A stretch of DNA of 63,199 nt, counting the filler, from Collodictyon triciliatum (taxonomy: Eukaryota), in NCBI GenBank assembly GCA_043381765.1. It is 8 parts of 8 records of this genome, joined end to end, with 100 filler letters (N's around TTAATTAATTAA, not from the genome) between each part and the next. Parts side by side here need not be neighbours in the genome. Positions count along the whole stretch, not along the records: positions 23,430 to 32,568 come from JBHJMP010003137.1; 7 more parts are not named here. One strand, 5' to 3'. The translations under genes and the position numbers were made by a program. Positions 23,595 to 25,648 of the stretch are shown piece by piece; within the stretch, counting starts at the first letter, position 1, and each line of letters opens with the position of its first letter. The notes beneath the pieces are model-generated. The model had not been told where the DNA came from. It made no database searches and saw nothing but the letters and a program-made list of their open reading frames with translations.

Positions 23595-23720
23595 AGAAGG
23601 GGTATAACATCTATCGATTGGTAAACCTGGTGCCGAGTATCGAAGGTCTCACTCCTTTTTTTTTTTCAAAAAGATTGTGTAGTGATGAAGGCTGCCAGGA
23701 AAGACCCGACAGTCTATTAT
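23595..23720 (-). ncRNA. Candidate Fanzor omega-RNA scaffold
   Basis: Lies immediately 3' of the Fanzor stop. Stems CUGUCGGG/CCUGGCAG, UCACU/AGUGA and UCGAU/AUCGA, plus possible long-range GGUCU/AGACC pairing. Position matches known TnpB/Fanzor omega-RNAs. Confidence 0.45.
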
Positions 23721-25648
23721 TTAGAGGATGGTGTATGCATTTTTTGAATAATTAAAAGAACTTTCTTGAGTATATTATAAGCGCTGTTAAAGTCCCTTGT
23801 CAAGAATACACTTTGTTTGCTTTCTGAGCGATTGCGTTCTTTAGATAAGTGACATCTATACACAACGCTTTTTTGTATTTCCTTTCGGTTTCATATATTC
23901 CAGTTCTTTTTCGCAGTTACAACACATCTTGGAGGGTCTAAACTCATCTACACTGTTTCGAAAGGTTTGGATAGTATTTTTCGTAACCCTCTTCCGATTG
24001 TTGGCATAAAATGGTTCATCGGAGATTTTCAGCTCCAGTCTCCATACGCCAGTACAACATCCTTGCCGAATGTCTTTTCGATTCGATCCATAAACATTTG
24101 CTCACTTCTTTTTGTATTAACACACTGTCTCCATCTCATCTTTCGAAAAGCTACTTGTTCATAAAATCTGGATAATTCTATCTAGCATCTTGATTTCATA
24201 GATACATTTTTTCGAAATTTTTCATAATCTACCGTGCATGAATTATGTTTACTCAGTTCTGTCACTAAACCGATTAAAGATACTCTTGATGTCTCAAACT
24301 GTCGAATCTCTTCAAAAGTCATGTGACCAAAAGAAACAGCACTTTGTAAATCTGTTGCCATGCGCATCCCTTAAAAATTGCATTTTTTTTTTATCGCGCA
24401 AGAGTATTTTGTGATTTTCAAGAGATTTGCTATCATGTCTTCTTTGGTGTGCCGTGTAACGTAATTTCTTACCTGTCTCATCCACCATGTAAACCAAATT
24501 AAACTTACCTGCGTTCACTCCAACAATTTTTTTCCGCTAATAATGATAACTGCTCTTCGGAAAGTTCATCTATATAAACATATTATTGGGTTTTTTGATT
24601 ATATTTGGATTTTGAATTTGAAATACCTTTCTTTTCAAACAATAATGACACCGCCAAGCCGTCTGTTTGTATCATGTATATAAAATTGTAGTCTGTTTGA
24701 TGAAAGACCCTCTTCATTTCAAAGAACTTATCCCATAGTGTCTCTTTGCATCCTGATGTATTCTTCAGTAATGATGTTTTTCTAGTTGATGCTAATACTT
24801 ATCAAACATGCAGTATCTGGAGTAATATGACATAGTATATAGTTAGTTCTTATAGATTGGTTGAAACAGTTAGGTTCCAATGCCACAAAAAATGTGATTC
24901 ATGTAAATCAGACACGGAATGTACATATTTGGATTGACTTTGATGTCCATTCGATATCTTTTACAATATCGCTGGGAATGATATAATGCAAATGCGTTGT
25001 AGTCCATCTTTTACATTTTTCAGGTATTTCAAGTTTCTTGAAGATGTCTTCTTTTTTAACTTTTGTAACTCTGCCTTTTTAATAGCTTCCGTAATATTCT
25101 CATTTTAGGGACTGTTTACTTTATAAAGCGCAGTAACCTCTTTACAAAATGTTCCTTAATGCTATTATGATAAGCTGCTAACATTTATTTCGCCAAGTAC
25201 GGTAATACATGAGACAGTCTAACCAACGGAAAGCATTCTTCTTGGGACTAAAGGAATCGAAAATCACAGAAATAAAATGTCATCAAGTCATCTCTCGAAC
25301 CCATTTTTAAACTTGCGAGTCTAGCTGTATGGCATAACCTCGCTACACTTTGAATCGAATAAAGGAAAAAAAAAACTTGCGAGTCTATCTTGTGAGACTA
25401 TTCCGACTGTCTTTAAAGCGTACAAAAAACATTTCATCGATTGTTGGGAGTTGTTGTGATTTCAATATGTAGCATCTCGCAAACAGATAAGTGTCAGTAA
25501 CCAAATTATGACACAATAAAACCGTATCGTTGATTTTGTGATTGTCATCCGCATTCTTTACAATCGACTTTAGAGATGTTTTCACATTTTGATAGTCTGG
25601 TTTTATAGAATTTAGATTCTCAGAATCAAGAGGTTTTCTTTTCTTCAT
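23717..25648 (-). pseudogene. Fanzor1 (eukaryotic TnpB-like RuvC nuclease), disrupted
   Basis: Intronless and in the expected motif order: VKTSLKSIV...LPTIDE, IQTDGLAVSLLF, IVGVNAGKFNLVYM...YTAHQRR (RuvC-I), AYGDWS, VDEFRPSKMCCNC (RuvC-II plus Zn), TRDFNSAYNI (RuvC-III). Multiple stops and frameshifts. Confidence 0.88.
25309..25387 (+). mobile_element. Short poly(A)-tailed retroposed fragment with 15-bp TSD inserted in the Fanzor ORF
   Basis: AAACTTGCGAGTCTA at 25309-25323 and 25373-25387 flanks about 49 bp ending GAATAAAGGAAAAAAA. The pre-insertion site reads TTTTT|AAAC. Confidence 0.8.

Follow-up and report, generated by a model that had tools for sequence, protein, structure and literature searches.

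A decayed Fanzor1 gene in the Collodictyon triciliatum genome, very probably one dead copy of a multi-copy transposable-element family of this protist lineage

Results

We analyzed a stretch of 63,199 nucleotides (nt) of DNA, here called the window, from the protist Collodictyon triciliatum (assembly GCA_043381765.1); positions 23,430 to 32,568 of the window come from record JBHJMP010003137.1. The minus strand of this part carries a decayed reading frame (pseudogene, 23714..25648) of the Fanzor1 type of RNA-guided nuclease, hereafter the relic. The relic spans about 640 codons, is intronless, and was delimited by colinear profile matches, by an alignment to its relative P0006 (below) and by checked start and stop codons: it begins with the ATG at 25648-25646 (MKKRKP) and ends with TAA TAG at 23719-23714. 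Its blocks, read 5' to 3', are distributed over three minus-strand frames: an N-terminal block, a block closing with TDGLAVSLLF, KIVGVNAGKFNLVYMVDE, a block closing with VVLAYGDWS, VDEFRPSKMCCNC and SESKQSVFLTRDFNSAYNI, followed directly by the two terminal stops. The first-pass annotation of the window had described a full-length, intronless, decayed open reading frame (ORF) of about 1.9 kb, and the span from the ATG at 25648 to 23714, the colinear profile matches, and the presence of stops and frameshifts agree with that description.

To place the relic among known proteins, we compared one of its read-through frames (24536-23562) with 1.84 billion representative proteins using HMMER. This search returned 54 proteins at E <= 1e-3, including full-length ones of 590-760 residues, the best of which was P0006 (634 residues). 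Among Protein Data Bank (PDB) chains, P0006 matched the solved Fanzor1 protein SpuFz1 (8GKH) over residues 14-607 with an E value of 9.2e-37, and matched PpFz1 and GtFz1 with E values of 7.2e-34 and 7e-16, respectively. Similarly, the top PDB matches of single read-through frames of the relic itself were Fanzor1 chains, namely PpFz1 (E 1.3e-4), GtFz1 (E 0.0023) and SpuFz1 (E 0.016). We then aligned 13 full-length relatives (alignment A1), in which the invariant columns were D372 (DPGK), E530 (NEF), D581 (RD-N) and three cysteines, and ran the resulting profile over all six frames of the window. The A1 profile matched the relic locus only, and its matches were colinear over profile positions 5-590: 25636-25421 in minus-strand frame 0 (profile 5-75, E 5.8e-12), 25391-24378 in frame 2 (profile 68-409, E 1.6e-35), 24828-24526 in frame 1 (profile 254-359, E 1.2e-18) and 24280-23729 in frame 0 (profile 409-590, E 1.2e-46). 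The first-pass annotation had called the locus a Fanzor1 relic; the A1 profile, at E values down to 1.2e-46, and the matches of P0006 to SpuFz1, PpFz1 and GtFz1 uphold this call. Judged by sequence comparison, the homology stands far beyond chance, and the relic is to be classed as a Fanzor1.

The catalytic positions of the relic could be assigned codon by codon on the minus strand. The RuvC-I position, which aligns to invariant D372 of A1, reads AAC (Asn) at 24515-24513, within GVNAG (24524-24510); most other copies of the family (below) have GAC (Asp) there. The RuvC-II Glu (GAG in VDEF, 23945-23943) and the RuvC-III Asp (GAC in RDFN, 23794-23792) are kept, and align to invariant E530 and D581, respectively. 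These codons and the A1 columns confirm the earlier reading of an Asp-to-Asn change in GVNAG with persistence of the other two residues. The RuvC-II Glu column of P0006 aligns to the stretch 'lldeykts' of SpuFz1, whose catalytic Glu is given as E541 (PMC10432273), and the spacing suggests that the RuvC-II Glu column of the relic corresponds to E541. In the alignment to P0006, the zinc finger keeps its first Cys pair (CCNC, 23913..23924) and has lost its second (23828..23857): the relic reads RCHLSKERNR, versus RCLVCNGC in its relatives. P0015, a protein from another copy, has RCLICKEC at this site. The catalytic triad of the relic is therefore Asn-Glu-Asp rather than Asp-Glu-Asp, and because most other copies keep GAC at RuvC-I, the relic is a dead member of Fanzor1 rather than a non-member.

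We also compared the relic with the published Fanzor motif, D-X(125,275)-[TS]-[TS]-X-X-[C4 zinc finger]-X(5,50)-RD, as Bao and Jurka give it (PMC3627910). The order and spacing of the elements and the closing RD are kept in the relic, and three elements are damaged: the initial D reads N, PS (RPSKMCC) stands in place of TS, and just two of the four cysteines of the zinc finger remain (RCHLSKER). The A1 relatives retain every element of the motif. The loss of the second Cys pair had gone unremarked in the first-pass annotation, as had the LINE tail inside the frame and the gap past the stop (both below).

A frameshift-aware alignment of the relic to P0006 covered 597 codons at 45% identity and contained 11 frameshifts and 9 in-frame stops, the stops being of all three kinds (TAA, TAG and TGA). 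Part of this damage is a micro-insertion of about 50 nt, the tail of a long interspersed nuclear element (LINE) with a terminal A run, which lies on the plus strand at 25324..25373. It is flanked, inside the relic frame, by a 14-nt target duplication (25310-25323 and 25374-25387). Contig depth, which is no measure of copy number, reached 1856/1656/249 in the bin 25324-25407, about tenfold that of the surroundings, and contigs had loose ends at 25326 and 25372/25375. With the insertion taken out, colinearity with P0006 was restored: the alignment became continuous over 638 positions, with 7 stops and 11 frameshifts. Short matches to this LINE tail also occur elsewhere in the window (39903-39922, 30431-30459, 5248-5274, 32881-32907 and 53590-53608).

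We next turned to other copies of the relic by placing contigs of four public runs (X1-X4) on 23560-26060 at >= 80% likeness. The four runs contained 515, 512, 188 and 74 matching contigs, with all identity classes represented; in X1, 100 contigs were at >= 99% identity, 126 at 95-99%, 167 at 90-95% and 122 below 90%. At several of the relic's stop positions, most other copies have sense codons: TAG at 24184 is CAG in the whole depth of all four runs, TGA at 24031 is AGA and TAG at 25249 is TTG in the whole depth, TAA at 23719 is AAA (123/155 in X1, and all in the other three runs), and TAA at 24585 is GAA in about half to all other copies. Similarly, the GAC codon at RuvC-I (C at 24515) made up depths of 100.2/100.2 in X1, 145.3/178.5 in X4, 23.8/23.8 in X2 and 20.4/20.4 in X3. 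Indels were found in a large share of contigs within 5 nt of the relic frameshifts at 23951, 24799 and 24853. Many of the lesions of the relic are private to this copy. Differences between copies were dominated by transitions in both directions, a pattern that fits neutral decay. These data demonstrate a family of many copies in the protist lineage, and with matching contigs in such numbers at >= 80% likeness, the prediction that this genome hosts or hosted a Fanzor family is borne out for the lineage.

The same data bear on whether the frame could still be alive by way of a variant genetic code, programmed frameshifting or introns that escaped recognition. Full-length colinearity is all that speaks for this idea, to which we give practically no credence and which is already contradicted: TAA, TAG and TGA all occur in frame, the 11 frame changes go in both directions, other copies have sense codons where the relic has stops, and catalytic and zinc-binding residues are gone. 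Because of its stops, its frameshifts, the LINE-tail insertion, the RuvC-I Asn and the loss of zinc-finger cysteines, the relic copy is dead and cannot make a nuclease.

Together, these results make it very probable that the relic belongs, as one dead copy, to a multi-copy family of Fanzor1 transposable elements in the protist lineage. Several observations weigh against this reading. In Pfam searches with single fragments of the relic and with three read-through frames carrying X at the stops, no TnpB-type family (PF07282, Cas12f1-like TNB, or PF01385) was matched. Among 16 relatives, PF07282 reached its curated cut-off in 2 and gave a below-cut-off match in 7 more (9 in total at E <= 0.01), with none in the remaining 7; the Pfam models are weak for the Fanzor1 clade of the relic. 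Because Pfam is blank on the relic's fragments and read-through frames, the case for Fanzor1 is carried by its relatives. Neither blastn nor tblastx found a second copy in the window. The transposase of L001, a virus-borne element described below (family DDE_3), gave no tblastn match in the window at E <= 10, and Pfam on the six frames of 25600-31000 returned a protein kinase only and no transposase. Repeat search and local alignment for terminal inverted repeats or a target-site duplication yielded only low-complexity polyT/polyA inverted matches, the best inverted alignment scoring 25 versus 18.9 +/- 2.1 for shuffled sequences, with 4/200 shuffles as high. Since the window lacks terminal repeats, a transposase and a second copy, it is copy number alone that argues for mobility. 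The first-pass annotation had likewise seen no partner transposase or terminal inverted repeats, in accord with the blank tblastn, Pfam and repeat searches. In addition, the four runs consist of short contigs, so that the copies can be counted only as 'many', and the data type of the two richest runs, X1 and X4, is uncertain, RNA being no more than a guess. Finally, the omega-RNA of the relic family was not seen by folding, by Rfam or by two covariance models (below).

Other searches for kin were of limited yield. A cluster look-up of 10 relative proteins gave no informative name, 2 of the 10 being 'hypothetical protein'. A 50-residue piece of the relic used as query against metagenome contigs found 6 loci, the best 59% identical and none of the same family, and P0003, a partial relative (69% identical), had no match in viral contigs or genome contigs. 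A tblastx match of 24040-24192 to 30201-30049 (E 0.003), considered as a second copy, was unsupported by the A1 profile and was dropped.

Upstream of the relic ATG, a block on the minus strand (25649..26060) is repeated along with the relic in other copies: contig depth continues to 26060, and X4 contig record 31 spans 25648-26033. Part of the block, about 25685-25861, is missing from some copies, as contig joints 25684>25862 and 25677>25857 indicate. Because likeness reaches at least 26060 and this piece is skipped in some copies, the left end of the element could not be placed. The block 25649-26060 matched no Pfam family and no Rfam family. Its GC-richer portion, 25862-26060, had the peak contig depth of the stretch (618 and 662) and was joined in some contigs to 25684; it may be a 5' part of the element or a separate repeat. 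On the other side, a gap (run of N, 23331-23429) begins about 280 nt past the relic stop, which is about 180 nt past the approximate 3' boundary of the family, with a microsatellite also downstream. The gap holds the linker TTAATTAATTAA, and the microsatellites on either side of it are (TCTTTTTT)n-like and (TTTTG)n. Further runs of N lie at 7990-8380, 9160-9200 and 60337-60385.

Beyond these flanks, pieces of a protein kinase were found on the minus strand at about 28376-29437 (PF07714, E 4e-10; PF00069, E 1e-7; read-through frame), and are probably an intron-bearing kinase gene adjoining the relic. By eye, a long open frame on the minus strand (51106-52299), which runs into a gap, is LINE reverse transcriptase-like, and C-terminal fragments similar to it occur at 62808-63197 and 36403-37338. 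A further minus-strand frame (18292-19440), in which a coiled region is followed by long stretches of proline (PPPPPPPGMMGG repeats), is formin-like by eye.

The sequence matches place the closest intact relatives of the relic on giant-virus contigs. In IMG/VR, 487 of the 537 pattern matches encode relatives, and P0006 is 88% identical to the protein of L001, which sits on a 254-kb giant-virus bin. L001 and L002/L003/L005 have in common a 3.3-kb mariner-type unit with inverted repeats of about 33-50 bp at its ends, in which a DDE_3 (Tc1/IS630-type) transposase lies on one strand and Fanzor1 on the opposite strand. In L001 the element occupies 1631-4952: the transposase is at 1638-2678 on the minus strand, an ORF of 69 residues that matches no family is at 2740-2949, and the Fanzor1 at 3001-4905 is intact. 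The right repeat ends 47 nt past the Fanzor1 stop. Of 79 loci, 13 had a transposase of the L001 type within the retrieved flanks.

We aligned the 3' ends of 54 distinct elements of viral or metagenome origin (A3) and obtained a conserved scaffold with an abrupt loss of identity after GGTGTAA, which in the viral elements lies 47 nt or more past the stop. The helices of A3 were 89.1% paired, versus 37-49% with the partners slid, and 107 cells were changed on both sides, versus 21-55 with the partners slid. The fold has two nested stems and a small hairpin, and TTTACA pairs at long range with the terminal GGTGTAA. The terminal hairpin falls into at least three sequence classes, on scaffolds that are otherwise alike. 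The viral kin thus clearly show an omega-RNA-like region that ends at a sharp boundary.

At the relic, the corresponding position is the 3' tail from the stop to the approximate end of family similarity (23610..23713, minus strand), as placed by contig depth. Depth of other copies in the four runs was 121/115/28/23.5 in 23644-23727 versus 12.9/13.9/6.3/4.2 in 23560-23643, and the likeness of X3 contig record 16 ends at 23610; it thus seems that family similarity extends 65-105 nt past the stop, with the boundary only roughly placed. The first-pass annotation had reported a structured stretch of about 120 nt after the stop and a recognisable omega-RNA region. We could not substantiate the former: 156 nt at 23725-23570 folded with a z score of -1.58 (13/200 shuffles folded as well or better), 331 nt at 23900-23570 with a z score of -1.26 (12/100 shuffles), and Rfam gave no match at E <= 1 for the tail. 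Nor did the relic 3' end show DNA likeness below E 7 to any of 78 tails of viral or metagenome elements. R1, a covariance model built on the viral 3' scaffold, scored only 4.2 and 3.5 bits at the relic end (E 3.7 and 5.3), and a model of the nearest clade alone (R2) gave E values of 4-5.5, neither being a match. As controls, R1 found 8/8 held-out viral loci at 99-130 bits and 0/4 distant metagenome relatives; because it missed all four of the latter, its miss at the relic is a weak negative. A by-eye likeness of the tail (GTCT...AGAC CTTCG) to the viral P1 stem found no support from R1 and R2. With folding, Rfam, R1 and R2 all blank, position alone favors the second claim: the tail is the right place for an omega-RNA, yet is not recognisable as one.

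These results also bear on the idea that the relic is a 'ghost' omega-RNA locus, in which the coding part is dead but the tail (about 23713-23610) works, being transcribed and loaded in trans by Fanzor1 from an intact copy, as has been proposed for ghost Spu-1 loci. The drop in family similarity about 65-105 nt past the stop is of the length class of the Spu-1 scaffold, for which PMC10432273 gives about 80 nt from stop to right repeat as the origin of the omega-RNA. Folding predicts an 8-bp hairpin and another stem-loop immediately past the relic stop, and most other copies lack the private lesions of the relic, so that intact protein donors may exist. We nevertheless consider a working tail unlikely: it folds no better than shuffled sequence (z -1.58, 13/200 as good), it matches neither Rfam nor, as a weak negative, R1 or R2, it differs from other copies at 23676 and 23713, its 3' boundary is rough, and no intact copy was seen among the contigs.

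We asked how the relic is placed among its relatives with a quick tree, for which 40 of 91 rows were kept after removal of near-copies. The relic fell on a long branch (1.77) and grouped with L001/L002/P0006, L004, L080 and P0020 (Shimodaira-Hasegawa-like approximate likelihood ratio test, SH-aLRT, 88; fork drawn open). This tree is compatible with virus-host exchange and gives no direction. An alternative is that the relic is viral debris, from a giant-virus genome that had integrated or from a mariner-Fanzor1 element borne by a virus, and no part of a resident cellular transposon family. In keeping with this alternative are the tree group of L001/L002/L004/L080, the giant-virus contigs that carry the nearest intact relatives, and the 88% identity of P0006 to L001. 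We judge it very unlikely, since identity to the viral group is only about 45% and the relic branch is long; no DDE_3 transposase, mariner terminal repeats or viral 3' scaffold is found at the relic; its surroundings hold LINEs and the pieces of a protein kinase gene, with a LINE tail inside the relic itself; and the hundreds of diverged contigs favor amplification inside a cellular genome.

Discussion

Our results indicate that the relic very probably descends from a resident, multi-copy Fanzor1 family. The ancestral element would have encoded, in a single exon, a Fanzor1 of about 640 residues, a RuvC nuclease guided by RNA and of the eukaryotic type descended from TnpB, and, by analogy with Spu-1, a short non-coding tail past the stop would have given rise to its omega-RNA. 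The relic copy then decayed, probably neutrally, through point stops, frameshifts, retro-insertion of a LINE tail, a change of the RuvC-I Asp to Asn and the removal of two zinc-finger cysteines, and therefore makes no nuclease. Our data demonstrate the homology, the decay and the multiplicity, whereas guidance by RNA and an ancestral omega-RNA are inferred.

Fanzor1 has been recorded from protists and giant viruses (PMC10432273), and the relic family resembles several described systems. Spu-1, the SpuFz1 element of Spizellomyces punctatus, belongs to the same Fanzor1 clade, as the match of P0006 to 8GKH indicates. As Saito et al. (2023; PMC10432273) describe it, a Spu-1 locus of about 2.1 kb holds one intronless ORF, no internal transposase and a short post-stop tail, and many full and partial copies share one genome; the relic and its family are alike in these respects. 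Unlike Spu-1 as described there, the relic has no detected 30-nt inverted repeats, no omega-RNA was recognised at it, the copy is dead, and its ATG is preceded by at least 400 nt that recur along with the relic in other copies. Even to P0006, the nearest intact relative found, the relic is only about 45% identical.

The closest intact proteins are held by mariner/Tc1-type Fanzor1 elements (PGv-1 and PUl-1, of giant viruses and protists, in the account of PMC3627910) together with the L001 type, with which the quick tree groups the relic. The L001-type arrangement is that of the mariner-Fanzor1 elements of Bao and Jurka (2013; PMC3627910). By contrast, the 3.3-kb unit, terminal repeats, opposite-strand DDE_3 and covarying 3' scaffold of the viral elements are all undetectable at the relic. 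CMe-1A of Cyanidioschyzon merolae, with about 150 diverged copies that are about 80% identical to their consensus, is, like the relic family, a Fanzor1 of many diverged copies without recognisable terminal repeats or target duplications in the description of PMC3627910; it comes from another host, and the two are likened by description alone. Finally, bacterial TnpB (IS200/IS605 and IS607) shares with the relic family the RuvC-I/II/III order with a zinc finger between II and III, and some relatives of the relic match its TNB domain (PF07282). The guide RNA of bacterial TnpB comes from the 3' transposon end, according to PMC10432273. Unlike bacterial TnpB, the relic family has a much longer N-terminal half, and the relic itself has no Pfam match.

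The relic is real but ordinary as a kind, a copy from a Fanzor1 family of an already published type: decayed Fanzor1 families with many copies have been described from protists and fungi since 2013 (PMC3627910). A bolder reading is that the protist lineage has a solo Fanzor1 family in high copy number, possibly active to this day, and that its closest intact relatives sit on mariner elements of freshwater giant viruses. We regard this as tentative and rather improbable. If it were true, an RNA-guided nuclease would have been exchanged between virus and host, a new programmable nuclease whose omega-RNA is short (about 65-105 nt) could be obtained from less decayed copies, and dead loci such as the relic may still supply guide RNAs in trans.

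Fanzor1 proteins are compact eukaryotic genome editors, and every new family adds target-adjacent motifs and guide scaffolds. The relic copy is useless as an editor. It flags this genome and related freshwater organisms as carrying an abundant family in which most copies keep the catalytic Asp, and it is one more observation on how the Fanzor1 elements of giant viruses and of hosts are linked. The relic thus directs attention to a genome that may contain better copies.

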